64,000 nt of DNA, from NCBI GenBank assembly GCA_963783375.1, contig CAWANH010000001.1, positions 64,001 to 128,000 of the forward strand. The letters run 5' to 3'. This document shows, piece after piece, positions 3,621 to 64,000 of the stretch. The translations under genes were made by a program, and so were the position numbers. The stretch's first letter is position 1; each line of letters starts with the position of its first letter. The DNA is from Candidatus Eiseniibacteriota bacterium (GTDB lineage Bacteria; Eisenbacteria; RBG-16-71-46; JABDJR01). The notes beneath the pieces were generated by a model. That model ran no database searches. It had not been told where the DNA came from and saw nothing but the letters and a program-made list of their open reading frames with translations.

Positions 3621-5348
3621 ATGACCGCGTCCACGCTCCATCCGACCGCGGCCGCGACCGTCGCCGCGTCCATCGCTCTCGCCCTCACCGCCTGCGGGGG
3701 GGCCTCGGAGAAGGGAACGCCGGGGCCTCGGGTGAACGCGCTCACCGGCCGGGCCGCCGCCGACCGCGGGGCCGACGTCTCCCCCGACTCCACCTATCTG
3801 GTCTTCATCTCGGATCGCGACGGCGGAGACGATCTCTACCGGATGGACTTCCCCACGAAGGCGGTGACCCGGCTCACCCGAACCGCGGCGGACGAATCCG
3901 ATCCCGCCGTCTCCCCCGACGGAAAGTCGGTGGCCTTCATCCGGACCGAACCCCGGGGAAGCTCCCTCTGGCTGCTCCAGAACCTGGGCGGGGACTCCGA
4001 CACCGCCACCCGCACCGCCACCGACACCTCGGGCCTCGCCTCCCCCGCCTGGTCCCCCGACGGGAGCCGGATCCTCTGCGTCTCCGGGGCCCGCGGCTTC
4101 GTGCTGTTCCCCGCCGGGGTGGCCACCGGTGAGCTCCCCGGAGCGCCCGTGGACTGGCCGTTGCCGGTGGATGCCTCCGAGCCCGCGTGGGGCGCGGACG
4201 GAACCGTGGTCTATCGAGCCGGCGCGCCCGGGGCCGGAGATCTCTATGCCTACGACCCCGCGGGCTCCGCCGGACCCCGCCCCGTGACCCGGACCCCCTT
4301 CGACGAACGCTCCCCCTCGCTCCGGGACGGCGTCCTGGCCTATCTCGCGAACCCGGAGGGACACTACCGGGTTCACGTTCTCCGGCCGGGGACGGGGGTG
4401 GAAGCCGCGGTGGAGCTGGGCCGCGATCCCCGGAACTGCTTCGACCCCGCGGTCTGGCCGGGAGGGGGCTCGGTCGTCTACACCGAGGAGGCCGGGTGGG
4501 CGATCAAGACCCGGCCGGCGGCCGGCGGAGAGGCCTCGACCCCGGTTCCCCCCGACGCCGGAAACTTCGATCCGGTCTTCGACGCCGACGCCAGGAACAT
4601 CTTCTTCACCTCGGACCGGGACGGAAACGACGAGATCTACGTGGTCGAGATGGAGGGCTACACCGTGGCCAACCTCACCACCAACCCCGGCCGCGACTTC
4701 GAGCCGGACATGAGCCCGGCCACCCACCGTCTGGTCTTCACCACGGAGCGGGAGGGAAACCTGGAGATCCTGTCCATCGACGAGAGCGGGCTGGACGAGG
4801 TGTTCCTCGCCCCCGGCCCGGCCCGGGACTCCGAACCCCGGTTCTCCCCCGACGGAACCCGGGTGGCCTTCGTGTCGGACCGGGCGGGGAGCCCCGACAT
4901 CTGGATCGTGGACGCCGCCGGTGGGGAACCGGCGCGGCTCACCACCGACGGCAGCGCGGCGGAGCGGTTCCCCACCTGGGTGGAAGGCGGCTCGGCGATC
5001 GTCTACCAGTCCGATCGCGGCGGGGAGGAACGCCTCTGGCGGATCCCGGCGGCGGGAGGCGAGGCGGCACCCGTGTCCCTCGACTCCGAGGCCGGCTCGC
5101 GGGACACGCGGCCCTCCGCCTCACCGGACGGCGAGCGGGTGGTGTTCACCCGCGAGCGGGGCGGGGACCGGGACCTCTGGATCCTGGACCTGGCCTCGGG
5201 GCGGGCCGTCCCCGCGGTGACCGACTCCCTGAACCAGGACGACGCCGGCTCGTGGAGCCCGGACGGATCCACCCTGGTCTACCAGAGCGGGGGCGCCCGG
5301 AACCTCATCCGCCGGGCGCTTGTCGGCGCGGAGCGACCCGGCTCGTGA
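3621..5348 (+). CDS. TolB-like PD40 beta-propeller lipoprotein
   Basis: Lipobox LTAC; many PxxSPDG..xF.SDR repeats. Confidence 0.8.
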   Translation: MTASTLHPTAAATVAASIALALTACGGASEKGTPGPRVNALTGRAAADRGADVSPDSTYLVFISDRDGGDDLYRMDFPTKAVTRLTRTAADESDPAVSPDGKSVAFIRTEPRGSSLWLLQNLGGDSDTATRTATDTSGLASPAWSPDGSRILCVSGARGFVLFPAGVATGELPGAPVDWPLPVDASEPAWGADGTVVYRAGAPGAGDLYAYDPAGSAGPRPVTRTPFDERSPSLRDGVLAYLANPEGHYRVHVLRPGTGVEAAVELGRDPRNCFDPAVWPGGGSVVYTEEAGWAIKTRPAAGGEASTPVPPDAGNFDPVFDADARNIFFTSDRDGNDEIYVVEMEGYTVANLTTNPGRDFEPDMSPATHRLVFTTEREGNLEILSIDESGLDEVFLAPGPARDSEPRFSPDGTRVAFVSDRAGSPDIWIVDAAGGEPARLTTDGSAAERFPTWVEGGSAIVYQSDRGGEERLWRIPAAGGEAAPVSLDSEAGSRDTRPSASPDGERVVFTRERGGDRDLWILDLASGRAVPAVTDSLNQDDAGSWSPDGSTLVYQSGGARNLIRRALVGAERPGS

Positions 5349-5383
5349 TCCCGTCCGAACCGCTCGCCCCGGCGAAACCCGGG

Positions 5384-5992
5384 TTACCGGTTGAACTCGA
5401 TGTACTGGATCCCCGCGGCGTTGTTGGCGTTGTTGAGGCTCAGCTCCCACAGGGTGAAGTCGCGCTCTCCCCGGAGCTTGGGAATGAAAGCGAAGAACTC
5501 GCTCTGGCGCTGATCCTTGAAGCTGAGCCGGGTCTGGAAGGCGAAGTCCAGGCTCAGGTTCAGGTTCTCGCGGCCCACCCGGGCCTGGTCGAAGAGCGAG
5601 GAGGGCATGGGGCCCAGGAACTCGATCCGGCTGAGGTCCCGGAAGGGGACGTTCACCAGCCTATCGAAGGAGTCCCGGTAGAAGCCGAACACGGCATGGA
5701 TCCCGCGACGCCGGTTGAACTCGATCTCGAGATCGTCCACGTAGAATTGCCCGGTCTGGGTCACCATGGTGACGTCGAATTGCTCGCCGCCGGTGTCCGG
5801 TATGGGCTCGGGGGTTCCTTCGGAAATCGGCGCCGGCGCGCCGGCCGGCTGGTCGGCGGGATGCGGCGCGCTTCCCGAACCCCCCGCGCAACCCCACCCG
5901 GCCAGACCCAACGCGGCCATGAGAAGGAGCACCGGGGGCACCCAGGTCCCCGCCGAAGGTCCGTTGCCTGGAACGAATCGTGTTGGTTTCAA
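5384..5992 (-). CDS. hypothetical lipoprotein
   Basis: TTG at 5992 with GGAG SD; hydrophobic stretch ending GWGC; globular C-terminal half. The ORF extension to 6592 overlaps atoE and is rejected. Confidence 0.6.
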   Translation of the reverse strand: MKPTRFVPGNGPSAGTWVPPVLLLMAALGLAGWGCAGGSGSAPHPADQPAGAPAPISEGTPEPIPDTGGEQFDVTMVTQTGQFYVDDLEIEFNRRRGIHAVFGFYRDSFDRLVNVPFRDLSRIEFLGPMPSSLFDQARVGRENLNLSLDFAFQTRLSFKDQRQSEFFAFIPKLRGERDFTLWELSLNNANNAAGIQYIEFNR

Positions 5993-6197
5993 CGTCGTCT
6001 CCCCGGGTTGATGTCGGGAAACACCGCCTCGAAAATCCTTCGGTGAGCGTTCACCCGCGAGCCCGCTCAACTGGCGGAGAATACCAGGGAGCTTCCGGGG
6101 AGACAACGCCGCCCGCCGGCGCGAGGTCGCGCGCGAGGTCGCGCGGCGCCGGGGCGATGAGCGGCCCGGACCGAAGCGGAGGAAAGAGTCCACGCCC

Positions 6198-7574
6198 ATG
6201 ATCCGACGCCTGGGAGACCGATTCAGCCGTCTGTCCGAACGGTTCATCCCCCACCCCTTCGTCTTCGCCATCCTGCTCTCACTCATCACCTTCATCCTCG
6301 GCCTGGTCTGGACCCGGACCGCCCCCGGGGCCCTCCTCGCCGCGTGGTACGGCGGGCTCACCGACAAGGGGGGGATGGTATTCGCCTTCCAGATGGCCTT
6401 GATCCTCATCACCGGCCACGCCCTGGCCGAGACCCGACCGGTGCGCCGGGGGCTGGACCGGCTGGCCGGCCTCGCCCGGGGGACGGCGTCGGCGGTCGTC
6501 CTCACCTCCCTCACCGCCATGATCGCGGCGCTGGTAAACTGGGGGCTCGGTCTCATCGTGGGCGCCATCCTGGCCCGCGAAGTCGCGGCCACCGCGCGCC
6601 GCCGCGGCGTGGCGATCCACTACCCGCTGGTGGTGGCCGCGGGCTATACCGGGCTCCTCATCTGGCACGGCGGGCTCTCGGGCTCCGCCCCCCTCGCCGT
6701 GGCCTCCCCCAACCATCCCCTCGAGACCCTGATGGGGCGGATCCCCATCTCCCAGACCCTCTTCTCCCCGCTGAACCTCGCGGTGACCCTGTTCCTGCTG
6801 GTGGCGGTTCCCGCCGCGCTCGCGCTCATGGCCCCGAAGGATCCCGCTCACATCGAACCGGCCGCACCGCCCGCCGAGGCTCCGGAGACCGGGCCCGGCC
6901 CCGAAGCCCGCCCGCACACCCCGGCCCGCGCCCTGGACCGGAGTCGGCTCCTGGTCGGGCTGGTGGCGCTGGGGGGAGCCGGCTTCCTGGTCCCCTACTT
7001 CGCGTCCCGGGGGTCGGGAGGGGTGACCCTGAACGCGATGATCTTCATCTTCCTCCTTCTCGGCCTCCTCCTCCACGGCTCCCCCGCCCGCTACGCCCGG
7101 AGCGTGGACGCGGCGGCCGGGGGAGCGGGAGGAATCCTCCTCCAGTTCCCCTTCTACTTCGGGATCCTGGGGATGATGAACGGGGCGGGGCTGGTGGCGC
7201 GGTTCGCCCACCTCTTCGTGTCCGGCTCCGAGGCCCTCGCCGGGGCGGGAGTGCCGGTGGGCTCCGCCCACGCCGCCCTCACCTTCATGAGCGCGGCGGT
7301 GGTGAACCTCTTCGTCCCCTCCGGCGGGGGCCAGTGGGCGGTCCAGGGGCCGATCATGATCGAGGCGGCGGAGAAGCTGGGCACCCATCTGCCGACCACG
7401 GTGATGGCCCTGGCCTACGGCGACGAGCTCACCAACATGCTCCAGCCCTTCTGGGCGTTGCCGCTCCTGGCGGTGACCGGCCTCCCGGCCCGGAAGATCG
7501 TGGGGTACACCGCGCTGCTCATGCTGCTCACCATCCCCGGGTTCCTGATCCTGCTCGCCCTGTTCGGGGCGTGA
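6198..7574 (+). CDS. atoE: short-chain fatty acid transporter (AtoE family)
   Basis: FAFQMALILITGHALA, NWGLGLI, HYPLVVAAGY, FVPSGGGQWAVQGP, NMLQPFWALP. Confidence 0.9.
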   Translation: MIRRLGDRFSRLSERFIPHPFVFAILLSLITFILGLVWTRTAPGALLAAWYGGLTDKGGMVFAFQMALILITGHALAETRPVRRGLDRLAGLARGTASAVVLTSLTAMIAALVNWGLGLIVGAILAREVAATARRRGVAIHYPLVVAAGYTGLLIWHGGLSGSAPLAVASPNHPLETLMGRIPISQTLFSPLNLAVTLFLLVAVPAALALMAPKDPAHIEPAAPPAEAPETGPGPEARPHTPARALDRSRLLVGLVALGGAGFLVPYFASRGSGGVTLNAMIFIFLLLGLLLHGSPARYARSVDAAAGGAGGILLQFPFYFGILGMMNGAGLVARFAHLFVSGSEALAGAGVPVGSAHAALTFMSAAVVNLFVPSGGGQWAVQGPIMIEAAEKLGTHLPTTVMALAYGDELTNMLQPFWALPLLAVTGLPARKIVGYTALLMLLTIPGFLILLALFGA

Positions 7575-7636
7575 TACGATGAGGCTCCCCTCTTGCGATC
7601 CCGGCGGCACCGCCCGCCGGAAAGGGCGCATCCCCG

Positions 7637-8494
7637 ATGCATGAGATTGGATTCGGGTGGTTCGAGCCCGCCTTCGCCACCCTCCTGGCCGTCCTGGGAG
7701 GGCTCCTCCGCTTCCTTCGGCCTTCGGCGCGGTTCGGAATCGGCCTTCCCTTCGTGGACTCCGACGTGGACCTCCGGCGCCGCGCCCGAAACCGCGTGGG
7801 CGAGATGCTGATCCTGTGGGGCCTGTGGGTGGTGGTGCAGATGCTGACCGGGGCCCCGGCCACCTGGATGTCCACGGTGTGGGCTCCACTGATCATCGTG
7901 GCCGCCGTGGCCTACTCCTACCCGGCCCGCCTCTACGCCCGGCGGTACCTGGTCGCCGACGGGACGCTCGAGGACGCGGACGAGGAGCGCCCCTACCCGC
8001 TTCGCGGCGGATGGGTCGTGGTGCTCCTCCGGGAGATCATCCCCCTGGCCATGGTTCTGGCGCCCATCCTCGTGGTCCGGGACAACTACGGGCGGCTCCC
8101 GGGCCGGGTCCCGGTGGCCTGGACCCTGGACGGCGGGCCGCTGGTGTGGATGGGCCGGTCCGAGGCGGTGGCTCTCCTCCGGCATCAGACCATGCTGGTC
8201 TACCTCCTCCTGGCCGGCCTCGAGGGGGTCTACCTGATCATTCGGTGGGGCCGTGGACGGCGGGGAGACATCGCCCTACGGATGCTCACCCGCCGCCACT
8301 GGTTCTTCTTCCTGTTCCGGGTGGGCTGGGTGGCGCTCTTCGCCGGGATCAACCTCGGCTTCGTGTACCACGCCATGGCCGGGCGTTCGCCCTACCCGTT
8401 TCTCGTTCCCGGTCTCCTCGCCCTCTCCGCATTGGGAATCCTCATCGCCATGCAAATCAAGCGGATCCGGCGATCTCCTCGGACCGGGTCTTAA
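7637..8494 (+). CDS. multi-pass membrane protein with DUF1648-like segment
   Basis: About 7 hydrophobic helices; LPGRVPVAWTLDGGP resembles the DUF1648/SdpI loop. Confidence 0.55.
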   Translation: MHEIGFGWFEPAFATLLAVLGGLLRFLRPSARFGIGLPFVDSDVDLRRRARNRVGEMLILWGLWVVVQMLTGAPATWMSTVWAPLIIVAAVAYSYPARLYARRYLVADGTLEDADEERPYPLRGGWVVVLLREIIPLAMVLAPILVVRDNYGRLPGRVPVAWTLDGGPLVWMGRSEAVALLRHQTMLVYLLLAGLEGVYLIIRWGRGRRGDIALRMLTRRHWFFFLFRVGWVALFAGINLGFVYHAMAGRSPYPFLVPGLLALSALGILIAMQIKRIRRSPRTGS

Positions 8495-44513: not shown

Positions 44514-46181
44514 CTAACGGAGGAGCACGAACTTGGCCTGGTAGGGCACCGGAAACCCCTCGAGCCGGGCCACGTAGACGCCGGCGGGCGCCATCCGGCC
44601 GGCCAGATCACGCCCGTTCCAGACCACCGTGCCGTGGCTGAGCCCGCCCGTCACCGGAAGCCGGGAGAGGAGGCGGCCGTCCGTCCCGTAGATCGCCACC
44701 GAGGGGTCCATTCCGGCCAACCCCGTCCACTCCAGCTCCGCCCGCCCCCGGGCCGGGTTTTGAAGAGCGCGGACCAGGTGCCCCATCACTCCCCCGTCGT
44801 CGGGAGGCTGGATCACCTCGTCGCCCCCCCCCGCGGCGGACAGGGCCAGCCGGTCCAGCAGGTTGGCGGTGATCCGGGCCACCGAAGGGTCGGACGCCAG
44901 CCCCTGGGCCCAGTCTATGGTGGCCGCGGTGAACACCGTCCCCCCGTCCGGGTGGACGTAGAGGCCCATGGTGGCGTTTCCCATGCTGGCCGGAGAAAGC
45001 CCCAGGATGGTGAAGCCGGCGGGAGTCCCGTCCCCGCCGGTGGCCACCGGGAGGCCGTTCTCCCAGGTGAACAGCGCCCCGTCGGTCTCGTACCCCACGA
45101 TGGTGGCGGCCCGGCCGAAGGTATCCCCGTCGGAAAGCCCGGTTCCCTCGTAGACCCAGTGGTCCGACCGGTGGACGGTGTAGCCGCCGTGACCCTGGGA
45201 GGCCGGGTAGAACCCGTGATCGTTGACGTAGCCGCCGTTCCGGTAGCTCACCCCGGTCATGGCGTTCTCGGGACGGAAGACCGGGTCGGCGTACCAGTTG
45301 ACGGTGACCCGGGACCGGTCCGTGCGGTAGAACGGATCGCGGTTCTTGTCCTTGTAGCAATAGATCCGGTCCCGCGAGTCCGAGAAGCGGATCTGCCACC
45401 AGGAAACGTTGCCGCTCAGGAAGGCGACGTTCCCGCCGGCGGCGATGCGCTCCTCCAGGTGGTCGCGCATCTCCCTGGACCAGTACTCGTCGTGACCGAC
45501 GCTCAGGAACAAGGGATATCGGGCCGGGAGATCCGGATCGTCGTGGAGGTCGACCCCGGTGCAATAGGCCACCCGATAGCCCGAGCCTTCCAGCCACCGG
45601 ATCATGGGGAGCTCCCAACTCAGGAACTGGCCCCGCCCGTCCTGGCCCTTGAACGGCCGCTGGAACGACACCACGTAGTTGTTCATGCCGCCGGGGGCGA
45701 GCGGGGTGTAGAGGCTGAACCCGCCCCAGTCGTTGTAGGCCTCCCAGGTGAGGAGCGAGGTCTGGAAGAGGATGGTCGCGTCCCGTCCCGGTTTGGCCTC
45801 CCGGACCACGAAGATCGCGTAGGCCGGGGAGGCGCCGGAGGCGTCCAGCCGCACCGTGTAGACCCCGCTCGGCCAATCCGGGGGGATCCGGACGGCGAAG
45901 GAGGGGACCCAGCCGCACCCGTCATCCCAGGGCCGCCCGGGGACCGGCTGGAGCGAGCCGGGAATCCCCGGAAGGGTCAGGTGGACCACGCCGGCCGCCC
46001 CCTCCCGGATGAAGGTCGCGTCGAAGGTGGCGGCGTCGGTGGAGACGTGGATCCGGACCGAATCGCCCGGAGCCACCGAGGTGGGCCACGCGTACCCCTG
46101 GACGGTGGCCGCGCCCGCGGGGTGGCCGAGGAGAAGAACCGCCGCCAGACCGCATCCCGCGAACCCAGCGCGCTTGTCCAT
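44514..46181 (-). CDS. secreted N,N-dimethylformamidase beta-subunit-family protein with C-terminal FlgD-Ig-like domain
   Basis: Signal peptide; TWEAYNDWGG.SLY, SFQRP, VGHDEYWS, FLSGN, GYETD; WNGRD..G...PAGVY. Confidence 0.8.
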   Translation of the reverse strand: MDKRAGFAGCGLAAVLLLGHPAGAATVQGYAWPTSVAPGDSVRIHVSTDAATFDATFIREGAAGVVHLTLPGIPGSLQPVPGRPWDDGCGWVPSFAVRIPPDWPSGVYTVRLDASGASPAYAIFVVREAKPGRDATILFQTSLLTWEAYNDWGGFSLYTPLAPGGMNNYVVSFQRPFKGQDGRGQFLSWELPMIRWLEGSGYRVAYCTGVDLHDDPDLPARYPLFLSVGHDEYWSREMRDHLEERIAAGGNVAFLSGNVSWWQIRFSDSRDRIYCYKDKNRDPFYRTDRSRVTVNWYADPVFRPENAMTGVSYRNGGYVNDHGFYPASQGHGGYTVHRSDHWVYEGTGLSDGDTFGRAATIVGYETDGALFTWENGLPVATGGDGTPAGFTILGLSPASMGNATMGLYVHPDGGTVFTAATIDWAQGLASDPSVARITANLLDRLALSAAGGGDEVIQPPDDGGVMGHLVRALQNPARGRAELEWTGLAGMDPSVAIYGTDGRLLSRLPVTGGLSHGTVVWNGRDLAGRMAPAGVYVARLEGFPVPYQAKFVLLR

Positions 46182-46681
46182 CGAATCCCCCCCCCTTTCG
46201 GGGGAAAAGAGCCGCCGCATCCCGGCGGTCCGGCGCCGCCCGGTTCCCGGGGGATCCCGGTGCCGGTCCGGCGCCTCGAAACGGACCCGACCCCCAAAAA
46301 AACGCGGCGCGCACCGTGCGCAACCACGACTCACCAGGGTACTCGGGTTCGGGTGTCCTTCGCTCGGTCACTCCCGGCGCCAGGCGCCCCGGAACCTGCC
46401 GCAGTATACACCCGGGTCTCCTCCCCGGCGCGGCCGGCGGGGGCGGAAGCCCGGGAGCCCCCCGCCGAGGGTATCCGGGCTTCCGGCCGATACCGGCTGA
46501 AATTGACTTATCCAATCTCTCGTCCCCGGTCGGGCTCGCCGTCCATGGAACTGCTCGATTCGCCGGTATACAATCGGGGCCGCACGCAAGGCTCCAGCGG
46601 TTTGCCGGGTCCCCGGTCAAGGGCGGGAGGTGCGATCCAGTCGCCGGCCGCGCCGGCGGCAGCGGACAAGGAGTGTCGGGA

Positions 46682-47965
46682 ATGACCAAGCCGTTCAACT
46701 CGTTCGAGATGGCCCAGGCCCAGTTCGACTCGGTGGCCTCCCTGCTGGAACTGGAGGAGGCCGCGCGGGAGCTGCTCCGCCACCCCATGCGGGAGTACAC
46801 CTTCGCCATTCCGATCCGGCTGGACGACGGCCGGATGAAGGTGTTCCACGGGTTCCGGGTACAGCACAACGACGCCAAGGGACCGTGCAAGGGCGGGATC
46901 CGCTTCCACCCGCTGGAGACCCTGGATACCGTCCGCGCCCTGGCCATGTGGATGACCTGGAAGTGCGCGGTGGTGGACATCCCCCTGGGGGGCGGCAAGG
47001 GCGGGGTGATCTGCGATCCCCACAACCTGAGCGCGCGCGAGCAGGAATCGATCTGCCGCGGCTTCGTGCGCCGCATGGCCTACGAGATGGGGCCCAACCG
47101 GGACGTTCCCGCTCCCGACGTCATGACCTCCTCCCAGCACATGCTGTGGATGTTGGACGAGTTCGAGGCGATCCACGGCTCCAAGCAGCCCGGGTTCATC
47201 ACCGGGAAGCCGGTGGCGGTGGGCGGGTCCCAGGGACGAACCGAGGCCACCGGATTCGGGTTGATCTTCACCCTCCGCGAGGCGATGAAGGAACTGGGGC
47301 TCAGGCCCCAGGACACCGTGGCCAGCGTGCAGGGCTTCGGGAACGTCGCCCAGTACGCCATCCGGCTGTTCGATCAGATCGGCGGCCGGACCCAGGCCGT
47401 CTCCTGCTGGAACCAGGCGGATCAGACGAGCTACACCTACCGGAAGGCCGGAGGGATCGACCTGGACGAGCTCCTGAAGATCACCGACCGGTTCGGGGAG
47501 ATCCACGCCGGCCGGGCCCAGGAACTGGGCTACGAGGCGCTTCCCGCCGACGCATGGCTGGAGGAGGACGTGGACATCCTGATCCCCGCCGCCATGGAGA
47601 ACCAGATCACGGAAGAAAACGTGGGCCTGATCAAGGACCGGGTGAAGATCATCGCGGAAGGGGCCAATGGTCCCACCTCCACCGAGGCGGACGAGACGAT
47701 CCGGGCCCGGGGGATCTTCCTCATCCCCGACCTTCTGGCCAACGCCGGCGGCGTCACCTGCAGCTACTTCGAACAGGTCCAGAGCAACATGAACTACTAC
47801 TGGGACAAGGAAGAGGTCCTGGGAAAACTGGACATGAAGATGACGGCGGCGTTCCACGCGGTAAGCCGGCTGGCCAAGGAGCGCGAGCTCTACATGCGGA
47901 AGGCCGCCTACGTCATCGCCGTCGACCGGGTGGCCCAGGCCTGCCGGGACCGGGGTTGGCTGTAG
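46682..47965 (+). CDS. Glu/Leu/Phe/Val dehydrogenase (probable glutamate dehydrogenase)
   Basis: ATG 46682 with AAGGAG; KGGIRFHP, GGGKGG, PAPDV, ITGKP, GFGNVA, EGANGP, NAGGVTCSYFE. Confidence 0.93.
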   Translation: MTKPFNSFEMAQAQFDSVASLLELEEAARELLRHPMREYTFAIPIRLDDGRMKVFHGFRVQHNDAKGPCKGGIRFHPLETLDTVRALAMWMTWKCAVVDIPLGGGKGGVICDPHNLSAREQESICRGFVRRMAYEMGPNRDVPAPDVMTSSQHMLWMLDEFEAIHGSKQPGFITGKPVAVGGSQGRTEATGFGLIFTLREAMKELGLRPQDTVASVQGFGNVAQYAIRLFDQIGGRTQAVSCWNQADQTSYTYRKAGGIDLDELLKITDRFGEIHAGRAQELGYEALPADAWLEEDVDILIPAAMENQITEENVGLIKDRVKIIAEGANGPTSTEADETIRARGIFLIPDLLANAGGVTCSYFEQVQSNMNYYWDKEEVLGKLDMKMTAAFHAVSRLAKERELYMRKAAYVIAVDRVAQACRDRGWL

Positions 47966-53140: not shown

Positions 53141-54028
53141 CTAGATCAGGATCCGGGAAGCCGCCTCGAGATCCTCCAGGTCGAACCGGACCAGCGCGAG
53201 CTCGGGTCCGTCGTGGGCCGCTCCCATGATGGAGGTCCGGCCCAGCTTCTGCCGCCAAGCCCCGGTCAACCCCGCCGACTCGTGGATGTGACCGTGCAGG
53301 GTGAGAAGCGGCTGGCGCTCATCGATGAAGCGGCGTATGGCCAGACTTCCCACGTGGAGGTCGAGCGGGACGTGGTCCACCATCTTTCCGTCCAGGGCGG
53401 CGCGGTCGAGCGCGGTCTCGTGCGGCGGCGCGTGAAACAGGAATACGGCGTCCTCCAGGGATCGCCCGTCGACGAGCTTCCGCAGGTCCTCCTGGATCGT
53501 GGCGTACCGGACCTCGTTGGCGGGCACCGGAACGGTTCTCCGTCCTTCCTCCGGTGAGACGCATCCGGGAGGGATGTACCGGGAAACGTCGTACTTCTCC
53601 CAGTCCTTGAGCGCGAACGGAGTGGGCGGGACGTAGGCGTATCCGTACACGGTATGACGGCCCATCGGGAAGCGGCCGCCGTGGGCGCAGGTCCACAATC
53701 CCCCGCTCTCCCCCTCCAGGAACGACGGTTCCTCGATCCTCGCGTCGTCGTTCCCGGGGATGAGAAAGACCCGGGGATACCGGGATCCCATCCCTTCCCG
53801 CAACCGCCGGAATTCCGGGAGCAGGAAGTCGTGCAGAAAATCGGGGTATCGCGTCTCCGTGGCGAAACCGGCGCCCTGGCCGAAAGGGAGGAGATCCCCG
53901 CCGAGAAAGACCATCCCCGGCCGATCGGTCTCGATCGCCCGCGAGAGCTTCCGGAATCGGTCGACCCGGCCGTGGACGTCCGACACGAAGAGGCAAAGGC
54001 TGTTCCCGGATTCCATTGGCGTCTCCAC
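53141..54028 (-). CDS. calcineurin-like metallophosphoesterase
   Basis: SDVHG, GGD, PGNDD, FHAPP, HGHIHE. Confidence 0.88.
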   Translation of the reverse strand: METPMESGNSLCLFVSDVHGRVDRFRKLSRAIETDRPGMVFLGGDLLPFGQGAGFATETRYPDFLHDFLLPEFRRLREGMGSRYPRVFLIPGNDDARIEEPSFLEGESGGLWTCAHGGRFPMGRHTVYGYAYVPPTPFALKDWEKYDVSRYIPPGCVSPEEGRRTVPVPANEVRYATIQEDLRKLVDGRSLEDAVFLFHAPPHETALDRAALDGKMVDHVPLDLHVGSLAIRRFIDERQPLLTLHGHIHESAGLTGAWRQKLGRTSIMGAAHDGPELALVRFDLEDLEAASRILI

Positions 54029-54201
54029 GTGCGATGTCTCCTGCCGGCTCGACCGGCGATCGCGCCGGTTTCCGGACGCCCCGATGCGCTCGCGTCGAGG
54101 GGCCGCATCATCCTACGCCATCACCCCTCCCGCGCGCCCTCGGCTGCCGGACGCGGCGACATCCCCCTCTTCATTCATGACAAGAACGGGCTGCTATCAC
54201 G

Positions 54202-54230
54202 TTGACACGCCCCACCGCGGGCGCTAGGGT
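54202..54230 (+). promoter_or_regulatory. putative sigma70 promoter of gdhA
   Basis: TTGACA-17 nt-TAGGGT. Confidence 0.6.
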
Positions 54231-54421
54231 TCGCTGGTTCGAAATCGTAGAGTAGTTCCACGAACCGGGCTCCGAGATCCGGAAACGGCGACGGGTGGTT
54301 GGGTACGGGAATCTCCGGACCGCGGTCCACCGGCGGAATCGGATACGAGCTGGGGCCGATTAGCTGGAACTCCGGCCGCCGCGGCCCGGGTGGGGTCCGG
54401 TGGGTACATCAAGGGGCTTAG

Positions 54422-55806
<1,385 letters not shown>

Positions 55807-55831
55807 TCGCCCGGATCTGAGCCTGTATCAT

Positions 55832-55870
55832 CGCGGAGTGCCCATCTGAACGATCGGCACTCCGCGTTCA
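55832..55870 (+). terminator. stem-loop after gdhA (weak terminator or stabiliser)
   Basis: 11-bp stem CGCGGAGTGCC/GGCACTCCGCG, 13-nt loop, poor U-tract. Confidence 0.5.
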
Positions 55871-55887
55871 TATTCGGGGGAAACGAC

Positions 55888-58857
55888 ATGTCGACCGATT
55901 TTCGGGACCCGGAGCAGGTTCACAGCAAGCCCAGGCTGCGACGGTTCCAGGACCTGATGCGCCAACGGGTCCAGAACATCCTCCTGGTCTCGAGCCTCTA
56001 CGACTCATTCATCCTTGCCGAGGACGGACAGCTCAACGAGGCGCTCCTTCGCGAGTACATCGAGCTCAACCTGAGCCAGAACCCGGATCTCACCCGGGTT
56101 TCCACCGGGGCCGAGGCGGTGGCGCTGGCCCGCGCCAACCCGCGATTCGACCTGATCGTCACCACCCTGCGGGTGCAGGACATGAACGCGGTGGACCTCG
56201 CCCGGAACCTCCGGGAGGCCGGCCTCGACATACCCGTCGTGGTGCTGGCCTACAACAATCGCTCCCTCACCGATTTCGTGGCCCGCCACGACATCACCCC
56301 GCTGGAGAGGATCTTCCTCTGGCAGGGCGACGTCCGGGTGCTGCTGGCCATGGTCAAGTACGTGGAGGACCGGCGGAACGTCGCCCACGACTCGGGGAAG
56401 CTGGGGGTCCCGGTGGTCATCGTGGTGGAGGACAACATCCGCTTCTACTCGTCCTTTCTTCCCGTTATCTACTCCGAGCTGCTCAACCACACCCACAACC
56501 TGATCCGCGAGGGGCTGAGCCTGGCCCAGAAGATGATGCGCATCCGGGCGCGTCCCAAGGTCCTCCTCTGCACGACCTACGAGGAAGCCTGGCAGTACTT
56601 CTCCGCCTACGAGGATCAGGTGCTCGGGGTCATTTCCGACATCGAGTTCCCGCACGGCGGAAAGCTCGATCGACGCGCGGGGCTCGACCTGATCACCCGC
56701 ATCTCGGCGCTCCAGCCCGACGTGCCGATCGTCCTGCAATCGAGCATCCCAGGGAACGAGAACCTGGCCCGGTCCGCGGGCGCATCGTTCCTGCTCAAGG
56801 GCTCCCCGGTGCTGCTCCATGATCTGCGCCGGATCCTCAAGGATCATTTCGGATTCGGCGACTTCGTCTTTCGCACCCCGGACGGCCGGGAGATCGACCG
56901 CGCTCACGACCTGGGGTCGTTGATCGAGAAGCTCCGGACCGTGCCCGCGGAATGCCTCGCCTTCCACGGCGAGCGGAATCACATCTCGAACTGGCTCAAG
57001 GCGCGGACCGAGTTCGCGCTGGCCGAGGCCCTCCGCCCCCGCAAGGTCTCGGATTTTCCCGACCTCGAGTCCATGCGCCGGGAAGTGGTGCGGAGCATCA
57101 CCGAGTACCGGCAGGAGTGGGAACGGGTCATCGTGGCCGACTTCGACCGAAACCGGTACGACCCCCTCATCAGCATGGCCCGGATCGGAGGGGGCTCGCT
57201 GGGGGGAAAGGCGCGGGGGCTGGCGTTCGTCAACCGCCTGCTCAGCGAGTCCGACTGGGGCGAGCAATACCCCGGGGTCCGGGTGCTGGTCCCGTTCAGC
57301 GTGGTCCTGGGCACCGACATCTTCGACCAGTTCCTGGAACGGAACGACCTGCGTGACTTCGCCATCGAGGAGGCCTCGGACGAGGCGATCGAACGACGCT
57401 TCCTGGCCGCGTCGTTCCCCGAGGACACCGTGGAGGATCTGACCGCTTTCCTCCGCGGGGTCCGCTGTCCCCTGGCCGTCCGCTCCTCCGGCCTGCTGGA
57501 GGATTCCCCGAACCAGCCTTTCGCCGGCGTATATCGCACGCTCATGATCCCCAACAACGACGAGAGCGAAGAGCGCCGCATGAGTCAGCTGCTGGCGGCG
57601 GTGAAGCTCGTCTACGCCTCGACCTTCTGCGCCACGGCCAAATCGTTCCTGGAGATGACCCCATATCGCCTCGAGGAGGAGAAGATGGCGGTGATCATCC
57701 AGAAACTGGTCGGCTCCCCCCACGGGAACCGTTTCTATCCGGACTTCGCCGGGGTTGGACGCTCGTACAACTTCTACCCGACCGCTCCCCAGACCGCCGA
57801 GGACGGGGTGGTTGCGGTGGCCCTGGGCATGGGAAAGACGGTAGTGGACGGGGGTTCGAGCCTCCGATTCAGCCCCCGCTACCCCCGCCACCTGGTCACC
57901 CAGTCCAACGTGAAGGACGTGCTCAACAACTCCCAGCGCGAATTCTACGCGCTGGACCTGGACGCGCCCGCGGACGGGACCGCGAACCCGGGGTCCGAGC
58001 TGACCGCCTACGATTTGAGGGTGGCCGAGGAGGACGGGACGCTGGCCGCGCTGGCCTCCACCTACTCCCCCGAGAACGACGCGGTGTACGACGGGACCTC
58101 GCGTCCCGGATTCCGAGTGGTCAGCTTCGCGCCCATCCTCAAGCACGAGATCTTCCCCCTGGCCGAGCTCCTGGACGAGCTGCTCCGCCTGGGCGCCCGC
58201 GGGTGCAGCGCGCCGGTGGAGGTGGAGTTCGCGGTCAACCTCACCGTTCCCCCGGGGTCCCCGGTGGAATTCGGGTTCCTCCAGATGCGCCCCCTGGCCC
58301 TGTCCCGGGAACTGGAGGAGCTGGAAATCGGCCACGTGGACTCCTCGGACCTGATCTGCCGGAGCACCAAGGTGATGGGAAACGGCAAGGTCACCGATCT
58401 CAGGGACGTGGTGGTGGTGGACTACCACCGTTTCGAGCGCGCGCGGAGCGTCGAGGTGGCGGAAATCCTCGCCCGCGTCAACTCCCGGCTCCACGCCCAG
58501 GGCCTCCCCTACCTGCTCATCGGCGTGGGCCGCTGGGGCTCCGCCGACCCGTACCTGGGCATTCCGGTCTCCTGGAGCCAGATCGCCGGCGCGCGGATCA
58601 TCGTGGAGGCGGGTTTCAAGGACATTCGCGTCACCCCCTCCCAGGGAACCCACTTCTTCCAGAACATCACCAGCTGCAACGTGGGGTACTTCACCGTGAA
58701 CCCCGAGGCCGGTGACGGAATCCTGGACTGGGACTGGTTGAACGAGCAGCCCGCGCTGGACGAGGAGGACTGCGTCCGCCACGTCCGGCTCCAACGGCCG
58801 CTGGTGGTGAAGATGAGCGGGAAGAAAGGAGAGGGGGTCATCCTGAAGCCGGTGTAG
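55888..58857 (+). CDS. receiver-domain + PPDK-type ATP-grasp fusion protein
   Basis: Degenerate receiver (ILLVSS..DLIVT), second receiver (VVEDN..ISDIEFP..LQSS..FLLK); LGGKARGL, AVRSSGLLED, EVEFA, LQMRP; SQGTHFF. Confidence 0.85.
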   Translation: MSTDFRDPEQVHSKPRLRRFQDLMRQRVQNILLVSSLYDSFILAEDGQLNEALLREYIELNLSQNPDLTRVSTGAEAVALARANPRFDLIVTTLRVQDMNAVDLARNLREAGLDIPVVVLAYNNRSLTDFVARHDITPLERIFLWQGDVRVLLAMVKYVEDRRNVAHDSGKLGVPVVIVVEDNIRFYSSFLPVIYSELLNHTHNLIREGLSLAQKMMRIRARPKVLLCTTYEEAWQYFSAYEDQVLGVISDIEFPHGGKLDRRAGLDLITRISALQPDVPIVLQSSIPGNENLARSAGASFLLKGSPVLLHDLRRILKDHFGFGDFVFRTPDGREIDRAHDLGSLIEKLRTVPAECLAFHGERNHISNWLKARTEFALAEALRPRKVSDFPDLESMRREVVRSITEYRQEWERVIVADFDRNRYDPLISMARIGGGSLGGKARGLAFVNRLLSESDWGEQYPGVRVLVPFSVVLGTDIFDQFLERNDLRDFAIEEASDEAIERRFLAASFPEDTVEDLTAFLRGVRCPLAVRSSGLLEDSPNQPFAGVYRTLMIPNNDESEERRMSQLLAAVKLVYASTFCATAKSFLEMTPYRLEEEKMAVIIQKLVGSPHGNRFYPDFAGVGRSYNFYPTAPQTAEDGVVAVALGMGKTVVDGGSSLRFSPRYPRHLVTQSNVKDVLNNSQREFYALDLDAPADGTANPGSELTAYDLRVAEEDGTLAALASTYSPENDAVYDGTSRPGFRVVSFAPILKHEIFPLAELLDELLRLGARGCSAPVEVEFAVNLTVPPGSPVEFGFLQMRPLALSRELEELEIGHVDSSDLICRSTKVMGNGKVTDLRDVVVVDYHRFERARSVEVAEILARVNSRLHAQGLPYLLIGVGRWGSADPYLGIPVSWSQIAGARIIVEAGFKDIRVTPSQGTHFFQNITSCNVGYFTVNPEAGDGILDWDWLNEQPALDEEDCVRHVRLQRPLVVKMSGKKGEGVILKPV

Positions 58858-59054
58858 TTCCCGGGCGCCGGCGCTCCGACCCGCGAGGGGCCCGCCCCGG
58901 GTCGCGCGCGGCGGCCTCCTGCCTCTAACCCGATACGCTCTGTCATCTTTGGCCGGGGAATGCTATTCTGGATCCTTGTCAGTAACAGTTTATTCCCCTT
59001 GAAGTTAGGGTCGGATCGCCCGCGCCGCGCCCCGTCCGGCCGCACCGAGGTTCC

Positions 59055-60661
59055 ATGGACGTCCTGGAGACCCACGTCAACACCGCCGATCCCGGCTACC
59101 GGGAGAACCGCGCCCGCATGGAGGCCCTGGTGGCCGAGCTCGGCGAGAACGTGGCCGCCGCCCGCCGGGGCGGCTCGGAGAAGGCCCACCGCCGGCACTC
59201 CGAGCAGGGAAAGCTCTTCGTGCGGGAGCGCCTGAAGCGCCTCCTCGACCCCGAGACCCCGTTCCTCGAGCTCTCCCCCCTCGCCGCCCACGGGCTCTAC
59301 GACGGGGGGGCGCCCGCCGCCGGCCTGGTCACCGGGATCGGCCGGGTGAGCGGACGCGAGGTCATGATCGTGGCCAACGACGCCACCGTCAAAGGCGGGA
59401 CCTACTTCCCGCTCACGGTGAAGAAGCACCTCCGGGCCCAGGAGATCGCCATGGAGAACCGGCTTCCCTGCGTCTACCTCGTGGACTCGGGGGGGGCCTT
59501 TCTCCCCCTCCAGGACGAGGTGTTCCCCGATCGCGACCACTTCGGGCGCATCTTCTACAATCAGGCCCGCATGTCGGCGGCGGGGATCCCCCAGATCGCT
59601 TCGGTCATGGGGTCCTGCACCGCGGGCGGGGCCTACGTCCCCGCCATGAGCGACGAGGTGGTGATCGTCAAGGGCACGGGAACCATCTTTCTGGGCGGGC
59701 CGCCCCTGGTGAAGGCGGCCACCGGGGAGGAGGTCACCGCCGAGGAACTGGGAGGGGCCGACGTCCACGCACGGAAGAGCGGGGTGGCCGATCACTACGC
59801 GGTGGACGACGATCACGCGCTGCACCTGGTGCGCACCATCGTGGCCGATCTCAACCTGAAGCCCCGGGAGCCCGAGGACCGTCTCCCCCCCGAGGATCCC
59901 CTCTACGATCCCCGGGAGATCTACGGCATCATGCCCGCCGACTTCCGCAAACCCTTCGACGTGCGGGAGGTGGTGGCCCGGATGGTCGACGGGAGCCGGT
60001 TCCACGAGTTCAAGGAGCGCTACGGCGGCACCCTGGTCACCGGCTTCGCCCGTATCCACGGATACCTGGTGGGCATCCTGGCCAACAACGGGGTCCTCTT
60101 CTCGGAGAGCGCGCTCAAGGCGGCGCACTTCATCACCATGGCCGACAAGCGGCGCATCCCCCTGGTTTTCCTCCAGAACATCACCGGGTTCATGGTGGGG
60201 AAGGCCTACGAGGAGGGGGGCATCGCCAAGGACGGGGCCAAGATGGTGCACGCGGTGGCCAACGCCACCGTTCCCCGCTTCACCGTGATCATCGGCGGCT
60301 CCTTCGGGGCCGGGAACTACGGGATGTGCGGGCGCGCCTACCAGCCCCGCCAGCTGACCATGTGGCCGGGGGCCCGGATCTCGGTCATGGGGGGGAGCAG
60401 GCGGCCATGGTGCTGGCCCAGGTGAAGGAAGAACAGCTTGCCCGTTCCGGCCGGACCTGGACCGCGGAGGAACGGGACGCGTTCATGGCCCCGACCCTCG
60501 AGAAGTACGAACGGGAGGGGAGCCCCTACTACTCCACCGCCCGGCTCTGGGACGACGGCGTCATCGATCCCGTTGAGACCCGGGGGCACCTGGCCCTGGG
60601 CATCGCCGCCTCCTACAACGGCCCCTGGGAAGAGCCCAGGATGGGCATCTTCCGGATGTGA
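59055..60661 (+). CDS. liuB: methylcrotonyl-CoA carboxylase carboxyltransferase subunit (frameshift in G run 60389-60395)
   Basis: [41 protein letters not shown]; adding one G restores [24 protein letters not shown]. Confidence 0.88.
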
Positions 60662-60671
60662 GGAACCGATC

Positions 60672-61463
60672 ATGCCGGAGCGCGAACCGCTGAGGATCGA
60701 CCGCCGCGGCCCGGTGGCCCGGGTGGTCCTGAACCGGCCCGCCATCCACAACGCCTTCGACGACGTCCTCGTCCGCTCCCTGACCGCGGCCGCTCACGAC
60801 CTGGGGGCCGACCCCGGGGTCCGGGTGGTGGTCCTGGCCGGCGAGGGGAAGTCCTTCTGCGCGGGAGCCGACCTCAACTGGATGAAGCGGATGGTGGACT
60901 ACCGACCCGAAGAGAACCGTCGCGACTCCGAGGCCCTGGCCCGGATGTTCGAAGCGCTGGACGCCCTTCCCCGTCCGGTGGTGGGCCGCATCCATGGGGC
61001 GGCCATCGGCGGAGGGACCGGCCTGGTGGCGGTGTGCGACGTCGCGGTGGCTTCGTCGGAGGCGGTGTTCGGCTTCAGCGAGGTGCGGCTGGGGATCCTC
61101 CCCGCGGTGATCTCCCCGTTCGTGCTGGCCAAGATCGGCGCCGCCGCCGCCCGGGATCTCTTCCTGACCGGCGACCGTTTCGACGCGGCCCGCGCCCACG
61201 AGATCGGCCTCGTCCAGCGGGTAACCGATCCCGAGGCCCTCGATGCCGGCGTGGAGCGGATCGTGGCCTCGCTCCTCCACGGGGGACCGGAAGCCCAGGC
61301 CCGGATCAAGCGGCTCATCCCGGAGGTGGCGGGGCGCTCTCCCGCGAACGCCCGGGAGACGACCGCCGAAGCCATCGCCGAGGCCCGGGCCGGGGCCGAG
61401 GGCCAGGAGGGCATGCGCGCGTTTCTGGAACGCCGCCCCGCGCGCTGGCGGGAGGACGGCTGA
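60672..61463 (+). CDS. liuC: methylglutaconyl-CoA hydratase (enoyl-CoA hydratase family)
   Basis: LNRPAIHNAFD, FCAGADLNWM, AIGGG, FSEVRLGILPAVISP; liu context. Confidence 0.85.
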   Translation: MPEREPLRIDRRGPVARVVLNRPAIHNAFDDVLVRSLTAAAHDLGADPGVRVVVLAGEGKSFCAGADLNWMKRMVDYRPEENRRDSEALARMFEALDALPRPVVGRIHGAAIGGGTGLVAVCDVAVASSEAVFGFSEVRLGILPAVISPFVLAKIGAAAARDLFLTGDRFDAARAHEIGLVQRVTDPEALDAGVERIVASLLHGGPEAQARIKRLIPEVAGRSPANARETTAEAIAEARAGAEGQEGMRAFLERRPARWREDG

Positions 61464-61464
61464 G

Positions 61465-62958
61465 ATGTTCCGCCGGGTGCTGGTGGCCAACCGGGGAGAG
61501 ATCGCGCTTCGCGTGATGCGAACCCTCGAGGAGATGGGGATCGAGTCGGTGGCGGTGGCCTCGGAAGCCGATCGCGACGCCCCCCATGCGCTGGCGGCCA
61601 CGGAAACCCACGTCATCGGCCCCGCCCCCGCCGCCCGCTCCTACCTCTCGATCGACGCCCTGATCGGGGCCGCGCGGAAAGCGGGTTGCGACGCCTTGCA
61701 TCCCGGCTATGGATTCCTCTCCGAGAGCCCCACCCTGGCCGAGGCCTGCGCCGGGGCGGGGATCGCCTTCATCGGGCCGCCCCCCGCGGCCATGCGCGTC
61801 ATGGGCTCGAAGACCGAGAGCCGCGTGGCCATGGAGCGGGCGGGGGTGCCGGTGGTTCCGGGGTTCCAGGAGCCGGGCGCCGACGACCGGGCCCTGGCCG
61901 CGGCGGCGGACCGTCTGGGCTATCCAATCCTGGTCAAGGCCTCGGCGGGGGGGGGCGGAAAGGGGATGCGGACGGTGCGCGAGCCGAAGGAGCTGGCCTC
62001 CGCCCTGGCCATGGCCCGAGGCGAGGCCGGGGCCGCCTTCGGCGACGACCGGGTCTACCTGGAGCGGCTCCTCCTTCGCCCCCGTCACGTGGAGATCCAG
62101 GTGTTCGGCGATCGCGACGGTCGCGTGTTTCACCTCGGCGAGCGCGAGTGCAGCGTGCAGCGCCGGCACCAGAAGATCCTGGAGGAGGCCCCCTCCCCCG
62201 CGATGGATCCGGCCCTCCGGGCGCGCATGGGCGAGGCGGCGGTCGCCGCCGCCCGCGCGGTCGGCTATCGGAACGCGGGCACGGTGGAGTTCCTGCTGGA
62301 CGAGGACGGATCGTTCTACTTCCTGGAAATGAACACCCGGCTCCAGGTCGAGCACCCGGTGACCGAGATGGTGTACGGGGTCGACCTGGTGGCCGCGCAG
62401 GTGCGAACCGCGGCGGGGGACGTCCTCGCCTTCGATCCCGCCGCCCTGGCTCCCCGCGGCCACGCGGTGGAGGCCCGGATCTACGCCGAGGACCCCGCCC
62501 GGGGATTTCTTCCCCAGACCGGGCGGGTGCTCCGGCTCCGCCTCCCCCACCGCCCCGGGGTCCGGGTGGATTCCGGCCTGGCCGGGGGCCGCGAGGTGGG
62601 GGTTCACTACGACCCCCTCCTGGCCAAGGTGATCGCCTGGGGATCCGACCGCGACCGGGCCGTCGACCGGCTCTACGACGCCCTTGGCGAGACGGTGATC
62701 CTCGGCGTCACCACGAACGTGGACTTCCTCATGGACGTCCTCGCCCATCCCGCCTGGAAGGCCGGCCGGCTCCACACCGGTTTCCTGGGAGAGCACCTTC
62801 CGGGGTGGCGGGGCGCGGAGCCGACCCCGCCGGAGGTCGTGGCCCTGGCCGCCGAGGCCTCGGTCATGGGCGCAGGGCGCCGGGGAGACGGCGCCGGCGC
62901 CCCCTCCCCCACCCCCTGGACCACGCTCGGGGGCTGGTCCCCCTGGGGAGGGCGATGA
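61465..62958 (+). CDS. liuD: biotin carboxylase subunit of acyl-CoA (methylcrotonyl-CoA) carboxylase
   Basis: ANRGEIA, HPGYGFLSE, GGGGKGM, ERECSVQRRHQK, EMNTRLQVEHPVTE. Confidence 0.88.
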   Translation: MFRRVLVANRGEIALRVMRTLEEMGIESVAVASEADRDAPHALAATETHVIGPAPAARSYLSIDALIGAARKAGCDALHPGYGFLSESPTLAEACAGAGIAFIGPPPAAMRVMGSKTESRVAMERAGVPVVPGFQEPGADDRALAAAADRLGYPILVKASAGGGGKGMRTVREPKELASALAMARGEAGAAFGDDRVYLERLLLRPRHVEIQVFGDRDGRVFHLGERECSVQRRHQKILEEAPSPAMDPALRARMGEAAVAAARAVGYRNAGTVEFLLDEDGSFYFLEMNTRLQVEHPVTEMVYGVDLVAAQVRTAAGDVLAFDPAALAPRGHAVEARIYAEDPARGFLPQTGRVLRLRLPHRPGVRVDSGLAGGREVGVHYDPLLAKVIAWGSDRDRAVDRLYDALGETVILGVTTNVDFLMDVLAHPAWKAGRLHTGFLGEHLPGWRGAEPTPPEVVALAAEASVMGAGRRGDGAGAPSPTPWTTLGGWSPWGGR

Positions 62959-62959
62959 C

Positions 62960-63442
62960 GTGGAGGTGAAGCTCAACCGGGAAGGCGAGGTCTTCCGGGC
63001 ACGCCGCGACGCGCCCGGCGAGATCACGGTGCTCGGTCCGGACGAACCTGCGAGGTCGATCACCGTGCTCCGGCTCCCCGACGGGAGCTATGCGGTGGAG
63101 ACCCCGACCGGCCGTCACCACGCCGAAGCGGCCCGGGAAGGCGAGACGATCTGGGTCCGCTGGCGGGGGCGCACCTACTGTTTTCAGATGGACCGCGGGC
63201 GCGGACGGGCCCGGGACTTGGGTGGAGGCCTGGCTTCTCCCATGCCGGGGCAGGTGCAGAAGGTGCTGGTCGCGACGGGAGACGCGGTGGAAACGCACCA
63301 GCCGTTGGTGGTGGTCGAGGCCATGAAGATGCAGCTCGAGATCAAGGCCCCGCGCGCGGGGCGGGTGAAACGGTTGCTCGCCGCCGAGGGGGACCAGGTC
63401 GCGGCGGGAGCGCCCCTGGTGGAGATGGAGGAGACCCCGTGA
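62960..63442 (+). CDS. biotin carboxyl carrier protein
   Basis: SPMPG, VEAMKM biotinylation motif. Confidence 0.88.
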   Translation: MEVKLNREGEVFRARRDAPGEITVLGPDEPARSITVLRLPDGSYAVETPTGRHHAEAAREGETIWVRWRGRTYCFQMDRGRGRARDLGGGLASPMPGQVQKVLVATGDAVETHQPLVVVEAMKMQLEIKAPRAGRVKRLLAAEGDQVAAGAPLVEMEETP

Positions 63443-63452
63443 ACCCCTCGTC

Positions 63453-64000
63453 GTGGCCGGTCGTCGCCCCCCCCCCGGCGGGCTCCCCGAACGCGCGGTC
63501 ATCGTGGAGGTGGGGCCGCGCGACGGACTCCAGAGCCAGGGCACGGTGATCGCGGTGGAGCGGAAGGTGGAGTTCGTGAACCGCCTCGGCCGAACCGGGC
63601 TGCCGGTGATCGAGGCGGGAGCGTTCGTGAGCCCGGAGTGGGTTCCGCAGATGGCCGACTCCGAGGAGGTGCTTCGCCGGATCGAGAGGCGGGAGGGCGT
63701 GCGCTACCCGGTCCTGGTCCCCGATCTCCGGGATTGGAGCGGGCGCTGGCCGCGGGGGCGCGGGAGATCGCCGTATTCACCGCCGCTTCGGAGACCTTCA
63801 ACCGGCGGAACACCAACGCGGGGATCGTCGAGTCCATCGATCGCTTCCGGCCGGTCGCCGGGCGAGCCCGCGCCGGCGGACTGCGGGTGCGGGGCTACGT
63901 CTCCACCTGTTTCGGCTGCCCCTACGAGGGACCGGTGAACCCGGAGAAGGTGGTCGAGGTCGTCGACCGCCTCGACGGGATCGGGGTGGAGGAGTTCTCG
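63453..64000 (+). CDS. liuE: hydroxymethylglutaryl-CoA lyase, partial, frameshift at GGG 63730-63732
   Basis: EVGPRDGLQ, FVSPEWVPQMAD; the shifted frame continues GLERA..FTAASETF..RGYVSTCFGCPYEG; start uncertain. Confidence 0.88.

Follow-up and report, generated by a model that had tools for sequence, protein, structure and literature searches.

Pyruvate phosphate dikinase (PPDK) and phosphoenolpyruvate (PEP) synthase combine the catalytic residues of an ATP-grasp domain with a carrier-like His domain (2fm4 for the PPDK carrier) and a barrel for PEP or pyruvate. Enzyme I of the phosphotransferase system, which uses PEP and has an HPr-binding helical domain, contains a swivel His domain as well (2wqd), which is an established case of such a domain handing phosphate on to another protein. 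Glutamine synthetase, a central nitrogen enzyme, is controlled by the modifying enzymes GlnD and GlnE (nucleotidyltransferase plus eraser). Rifampin phosphotransferase (RPH; 5hv1) and the two-component dikinase HpeHI (9goj; available part of PMC12167813) possess a PPDK-type ATP-grasp domain, a C-terminal swivel-like domain whose conserved His stands where a helix begins and, between the two, a drug- or phenol-binding domain. Here, we describe P0001 (989 amino acids; 55888..58857, + strand), which is encoded in a 64,000-nucleotide stretch of a Candidatus Eiseniibacteriota bacterium (contig CAWANH010000001.1, positions 64,001 to 128,000; hereafter the window) and consists of a pseudo-receiver, a receiver, a DUF5752-like helical domain, a PPDK-type ATP-grasp domain and a predicted swivel His domain.

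Although P0001 shares the ATP-grasp type and a His domain with PPDK, PEP synthase and RPH/HpeHI, it has neither the PEP/pyruvate barrel nor the drug- or phenol-binding domain, and it scores far under the PPDK and PEP synthase family cut-offs. Swivel domains, those of RPH/HpeHI included, carry a T/SxxGGxxxH motif (available part of PMC12167813), whereas the P0001 family has PSxG[S/T]H; N-terminal receivers or sensors and a linkage to glutamate dehydrogenase (GDH) genes are further features of the P0001 family. Unlike in enzyme I, the phosphate source would be ATP. Hybrid sensor histidine kinases resemble the family in a conserved His, an intact-pocket receiver in the chain, a sensor common with a NarX-type kinase and the occurrence of split pairs, but P0001 has no HisKA/DHp or GHKL domain, its receiver precedes the catalytic module, and many members are receiver-less. 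Response regulators with enzymatic output have a cognate kinase near, whereas none is present in the window, and the likeness to GlnD/GlnE is one of function only, as the catalytic modules are not homologous and the target of P0001 would be GDH. P0001 is thus outside PPDK/PEP synthase, the RPH-type dikinases and the hybrid kinases, lacking a defining feature of each, although by analogy its chemistry is likely to resemble that of PPDK/PEP synthase and the RPH-type dikinases. Our preferred reading, to which we assign a probability of roughly 0.4, is that the family consists of signal-gated dikinase-type phosphotransferases that would deliver a His-borne phosphate to GDH or to the complex around it, while the receiver would serve as a switch or a sink.

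Family size and linkage to glutamate dehydrogenase

The P0001 family is large: of 7998 candidates scored, 7991 proved to be homologues, and a library clustered at 50% identity yielded 1361 representatives with E <= 1e-30. In GTDB, 622 loci were confirmed, and genomic linkage was surveyed at the best 80 of them, which come from at least 8 major lineages (Acidobacteriota, Bacteroidota/Ignavibacteria, Gemmatimonas, Planctomycetota, Zixibacteria, Eisenbacteria, Thermoleophilia and Deltaproteobacteria). A GDH gene lies no more than 8 kb away at 43 of these 80 loci, and at 34 its distance from a family gene is at most 1 kb; where at least 5 kb is available on each side, 30 of 47 loci carry one. By an arithmetic estimate, a GDH would be expected in about 1% of random 16-kb segments; as the loci include kin, the counts do not amount to a statistical test. 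Gene order and strand of the family gene relative to GDH are variable. This link, which is absent from the original prediction made on the window, says more than any other observation about the likely output of the system.

A sample of Bacteroidaceae gives a similar view at closer range. The family gene is single-copy in 54 of 61 genomes, and among these 54 genes a GDH is found within 5 kb in 21 and within 20 kb in 26, with two GDHs flanking the gene in 8; in four genomes (G007, G008, G034 and G035) the family gene is directly downstream of GDH. One protein that appeared to be a fusion with GDH, P0361, carries only the C-terminal half of GDH, looks like a frameshift read-through and was left uncounted. 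As a separate observation, the Bacteroidales loci L038-L044, L047, L048, L053, L063 and L064 have no GDH near and carry 2-oxoacid:ferredoxin oxidoreductase alpha/beta genes upstream, and most of them contain two tandem family genes.

Bacteroides fragilis P207 provides the nearest experimental material. According to the available supplements of PMC10197588, PTOS_003162 of this strain is 2970 bp long, contains PPDK_N and two CheY-like matches, adjoins gdhA, is annotated as a PEP synthase, and is expressed and non-essential; its assignment to the P0001 family is based on length and signatures rather than sequence. The same supplements report that deoxycholate induces it about 2-fold, compared with about 9- to 19-fold for gdhA. 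No description of the P0001 family was found in the literature, with subscription journals and response-regulator censuses, in which this combination of domains may figure, lying outside reach, and the gene goes unmentioned in the available parts of the B. fragilis preprint (main text), PMC5552732 and PMC13508794. The ESM Atlas holds only unnamed clusters of the family itself. A PPDK-like gene within a kinase/regulator cluster of Desulfovibrio is listed in the accessible part of PMC4001038.

Catalytic module, receivers and interchangeable heads

The AlphaFold model of P0001 (76-sequence alignment) has a mean predicted local distance difference test (pLDDT) score of 86.9 and a predicted template modelling score of 0.77, and shows two beta/alpha receiver folds, a small helical domain, the ATP-grasp domain and a compact C-terminal domain, in that order. 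With the whole model, Foldseek placed RPH 5hv1 at the top (E 7e-12), followed by HpeI, PEP synthase, PleD and PPDK. The PPDK_N ATP-grasp domain (amino acids 437-808; 57196..58311, + strand; Pfam E 1.7e-34), in which the stretch RSS..ED..FAG.Y is common to P0001 and RPH, carries K441, R532, E780, Q799 and R801, presumably the equivalents of the PPDK catalytic residues. Conservation was counted in 108 near-full-length representatives, aligned from 150 listed with fragments and long fusions excluded: K441, R532 and Q799 are present in all 108, E780 in 107, R801 in 104, and the complete six-residue catalytic set, which includes H922 of the C-terminal domain, in 106. In the model the chain stops at amino acid 989, inside the His domain and without a pyruvate-binding barrel, and no small-molecule substrate-binding domain is seen. 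Against TIGR01418, P0001 scores 31 bits (cut-off 740), and the three PF00391 matches in the host genome are separate canonical PEP-utiliser genes.

The C-terminal domain (amino acids 815-989; 58330..58854, + strand), for which the model predicts a swivelling beta/beta/alpha fold, contains H922 (codon 58651-58653) within the motif SQGTHFF (58639-58659). The original prediction had paralleled this His with the phospho-His motif of PEP-utiliser swivel domains, and the fold agrees with that proposal. When the domain was folded alone (104 sequences; pLDDT 93) and its residues 3-179 were aligned by VIA-align against 48,161 chains, the top match was the RPH swivel domain (756-867; Z 6.9, root-mean-square deviation 3.2, 112 aligned), followed by a DRTGG domain (6.8), the extra domain of pyruvate kinase (6.7), PPDK carriers (6.7 and 6.6), enzyme I (6.0) and then other swivelling beta/beta/alpha proteins; PEP-utiliser domains account for five of the top six, and phospho-His swivels come first. 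Foldseek agrees weakly, with PPDK as its best match (E 0.016). H922, which is kept in 106 of the 108 representatives, opens the helix 922-929 after a strand and loop and before a strand, the same order of elements as around the known motif. The sequence part of the parallel did not hold up, as the context is PSQG[S/T]H(FF) across relatives, the T/SxxGGxxxH motif is absent, and the domain profile gave only chance matches to Pfam and to PDB sequences. The likeness of H922 to a swivel phospho-His is therefore one of modelled fold and helix position, not of sequence, and the domain is likely a divergent swivel domain.

The receivers agree well with what had been predicted from the nucleotide sequence. 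Receiver 1 (about amino acids 28-160; 55969..56367, + strand; Pfam Response_reg E 7.7e-10) is indeed degenerate: the acidic pair, the acceptor Asp and the Lys are missing, and among the 108 representatives an Asp occurs at positions 92-94 in three. It is this receiver, not the intact one, that the Pfam match (amino acids 42-124) covers. Receiver 2 (about amino acids 174-320; 56407..56847, + strand) keeps the anticipated VEDN (56425-56436, amino acids 180-183; E181/D182), the Asp of ISDIEFP (56632-56652; D251 codon 56638-56640), S285 in LQSS and K304 in LLKGS, and the helical insertion appears in the model (amino acids 184-240; helices 184-206, 212-220 and 231-240). Among the representatives E181 is found in 103, D182 in 91, D251 in 97, S285 in 98 (Thr in 6) and K304 in 101, and the five-residue pocket is complete in 88. 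D251 has been lost with H922 kept in 11, and the two relatives without H922 still have the receiver 2 pocket. The DUF5752-like small helical domain (56863..57129, + strand), detected by a weak Pfam match below the cut-off (amino acids 338-415), has an invariant W369 and H360 in 94 of 108.

The predicted lack of a canonical histidine kinase in the window was borne out: HATPase_c gave no match there, all 49 in the genome (of 50 scored candidates) being elsewhere, and when 39 of the genome's matches were made into a profile, it found nothing in the window. Domain searches of P0001 itself returned neither HisKA/DHp nor HATPase_c. Across the survey, histidine kinases occur at 7 of 80 loci, which is not above the kinase density of the host genome (about 0.17 per 16 kb by arithmetic estimate). 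At two loci, both from Ignavibacteria, a PAS/HisKA_3 kinase is directly downstream of the family gene (L008:3230-4705 and L030:4544-5599) and might serve the receiver as an outside donor.

Two paralogues in the window have no receivers. P0002 (48078..49841, + strand) is a bare ATP-grasp plus His domain (H519), and P0003 (49912..53106, + strand) has a sensor-like N-terminus, a helical region, an ATP-grasp domain, a His domain (H839) and a nucleotidyltransferase. The K, R, E, Q, R and His residues are all kept in 27 of 27 P0002-type and 27 of 27 P0003-type proteins, sets that include 20 natural P0002+P0003 fusions. These fusions, single chains of 1523-1655 amino acids (P0270 and P0273-P0291), make up 20 of 120 listed long homologues and, with two active sites in one chain, suggest that P0002 and P0003 work as an obligate pair. 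Three genomes of 93-97% completeness (G074, G083 and G090), hand-picked from 41 relatives, hold receiver-less members only, each in a GDH locus; in that set, three of five genomes are without a receiver form, whereas in another set five of five genomes with P0002/P0003 loci encode a receiver form at another site, so that transfer in trans would be possible there. The first ~120 amino acids of P0003 (49912-50320; ERxKELxC...WQYPE...GPFLxEE) are an unnamed sensor domain with no match in Pfam. This sensor also forms the N-terminus of a NarX-type kinase encoded by the host genome (G000:C3:296918-297286), and by eye P0217, P0225 and P0188 have between one and about four copies of it preceding their receivers (tandemly repeated in P0188 and P0225); the N-terminal heads of the family therefore look like interchangeable inputs. 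A TIR/NB-ARC head (P0315), seen in one record, was left out of the counts.

A split form places an ATP-grasp plus His gene (TQGTHF) directly before a stand-alone gene for a pseudo-receiver, a receiver and DUF5752 (L113:5276-8422, L114:4559-7710 and L066:2643-5804); at L113 the two genes occupy 5276-6940 and 6947-8422, and at L114 the pair comes after gdhA. The stand-alone protein has two DUF5752 domains, no Pfam annotation and two invariant His residues (368 and 461). Its family has 617 matches at E <= 1e-30, among the best 120 of which (all 461-499 amino acids) the DD, D, S and K residues are kept in 120, and it is rare in the host phylum (3 of 206 genomes). The catalytic half of the split form has lost the LQxR motif, and its chemistry may therefore differ.

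Possible destinations of the phosphate

According to the preferred reading, ATP would be converted to AMP and Pi by way of phospho-His922, as in the chemistry of PPDK and RPH, and the phosphate would then be passed to GDH or to a partner in the GDH complex. Comparative genomics points to an acceptor outside the P0001 chain and to N-terminal parts that would serve as interchangeable inputs: the receiver pair in P0001, the kinase-shared sensor in P0003, sensor copies before the receivers in some relatives and none in P0002. The receiver pair likely acts as a switch on phosphotransfer activity, and D251 could receive phosphate from a small donor, from an unlinked kinase or from His922 itself, in which last case the receiver would be a sink. 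A receiver that gates a dikinase, one of the two options of the original prediction, fits the receiver-less forms, the relatives without D251 and the genomes with receiver-less members only.

Several observations weigh against transfer to GDH. No close GDH is present at 37 of the 80 loci (for the most part either Acidobacteriota or Bacteroidales that carry 2-oxoacid:ferredoxin oxidoreductase genes, with short contigs frequent among them) or in 33 of the 54 Bacteroidaceae genomes, and genuine separation of the two genes is seen on closed or long contigs (e.g., G009, G018, G027 and G052). When linked GDHs were compared by eye, no specific acceptor residue stood out. A receiver 2 pocket kept in 88 of 108 representatives with no kinase enrichment nearby favours an internal over an outside donor. 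As to the His domain, every VIA-align Z is below 8, a range in which, as the tool cautions, scores may reflect a common arrangement only, and hhalign against 24 PEP-utiliser domains gave no match, the score being under the maximum of shuffled controls. In deoxycholate, gdhA insertions of B. fragilis have fitness values of about +1, compared with -0.11 to +0.08 for PTOS_003162 insertions (available supplements of PMC10197588); because the two phenotypes differ, the gene is not needed for the effect of this GDH in deoxycholate, and the data argue against a role as its obligatory activator or as one of its subunits under that condition. Finally, the support for transfer to GDH is genomic context throughout, and the phosphorylation and binding steps are predicted.

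The other option of the original prediction, a convergently built hybrid kinase in which phosphate would move from the ATP-grasp domain to His922 and on to D251, so that the phosphorylated receiver/DUF5752 part would be the output that binds and controls GDH, is in our view doubtful. It would account for the retained receiver 2 pocket beside unenriched kinases (7 of 80 loci), for the split pair, which resembles a kinase-regulator gene pair with the receiver pocket invariant in 120 of 120, and for the fact that, apart from its ATP-grasp and His domains, P0001 offers only receivers and DUF5752 as partners; in addition, an RPH-type swivel shuttles to another domain of its own chain (available part of PMC12167813). 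Yet no catalytic residue is missing from the receiver-less subfamilies, the receiver form is absent from three genomes, D251 was lost with H922 kept in 11 of 108 relatives compared with two that lost H922, and the PAS kinases directly downstream at L008 and L030 are possible outside donors. To our knowledge, swivel-to-receiver phosphotransfer has no known case, which we count against such a relay. Because the receiver-less paralogues are catalytically fully equipped and three genomes hold these alone, D251 cannot be the family-wide phosphate acceptor, and the hybrid-kinase proposal fails for the family as a whole. With similar reserve, we note what it would imply where it applied: a dikinase-built class of histidine kinases without HisKA/GHKL, relaying from ATP-grasp to swivel His to receiver Asp in the same chain or in split form, and, just as tentatively, GDH control by this class in many phyla, gut Bacteroides among them. 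Phosphotransfer to GDH and an internal relay are not mutually exclusive.

A third explanation, which we hold to be unlikely, is a small-molecule dikinase working with GDH, whose substrate would be a metabolite from the glutamate/2-oxoglutarate node that GDH might present, while the receiver only gates the reaction. The closest solved folds (RPH, HpeI and PEP synthase) all belong to small-molecule dikinases, HpeHI is a two-component enzyme (available part of PMC12167813), and genes of this node are among the neighbours: 2-oxoacid:ferredoxin oxidoreductase alpha and beta at 12 loci each, a GltD/NfnB-like pair at 9 and 8, proline dehydrogenase at 6 and class III aminotransferase at 4. However, there is no substrate-binding domain, P0002 is an ATP-grasp and a His domain alone, and the variable sensor/receiver heads, fused nucleotidyltransferase and linked phosphoesterase look like signalling parts; in the B. 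fragilis data (supplements of PMC10197588), the gene is non-essential and its insertions are near neutral in plain medium as well as in deoxycholate. That P0001 is an ordinary PEP synthase, as source names such as 'phosphoenolpyruvate synthase' and the PPDK_N domain would have it, is hardly credible given the missing pyruvate-binding barrel, the 31 bits against 740 for TIGR01418 and the canonical PEP-utiliser genes that the genome already has.

Gene neighbourhood and biological meaning

In the window, a gdhA-type GDH (54443..55806, + strand) ends 81 bases 5' of P0001. Compared with intact copies from the same genus, it is broken by two single-base insertions, and since same-genus genomes have the identical gene order with gdhA intact, the two extra bases are probably read errors. 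Similar breaks occur at ~60400 and ~63700, suggesting read errors in the assembly. A second GDH of another subfamily, closest to the GdhA_Arch model, is directly 5' of P0002 (46676..47965, + strand; start inferred inside the open reading frame 46316-47965). Between P0003 and gdhA is a calcineurin-like metallophosphoesterase (53141..54028, - strand), which occurs at 6 of the 80 loci (L054, L059, L061, L066, L071 and L078), only with receiver-less paralogues, and may be an eraser for receiver-less systems; the nucleotidyltransferase is found at 4. No promoter or terminator match was obtained in 53900-59200. Farther away, 59055-64000 encodes a carboxyl transferase (Pfam) and then, by eye, enoyl-CoA hydratase, biotin carboxylase, a biotin carrier and HMG-CoA lyase, a gene set resembling a leucine-catabolism-type operon. 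On the other side, divergent from the GDH at 46676..47965, is a gene (44514-46334, - strand) whose product looks secreted and contains a domain like the N,N-dimethylformamidase beta subunit (Pfam E 8e-90).

B. fragilis GDH is reported to undergo reversible inactivation in vivo. A 1996 paper by Baggio and Morrison speaks in its title of 'trans-acting gene(s) downstream of gdhA', and the P0001 family is a candidate for such gene(s). We know of no dedicated bacterial GDH-modifying system. The family comprises thousands of proteins that now carry the wrong label of 'PEP synthase' or 'histidine kinase', and it would provide post-translational control of GDH, a central nitrogen enzyme. If the His-to-Asp branch were true, it would represent two-component signalling without a GHKL kinase. 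Under either reading, metabolic models that count a family gene as PEP synthase are probably wrong.

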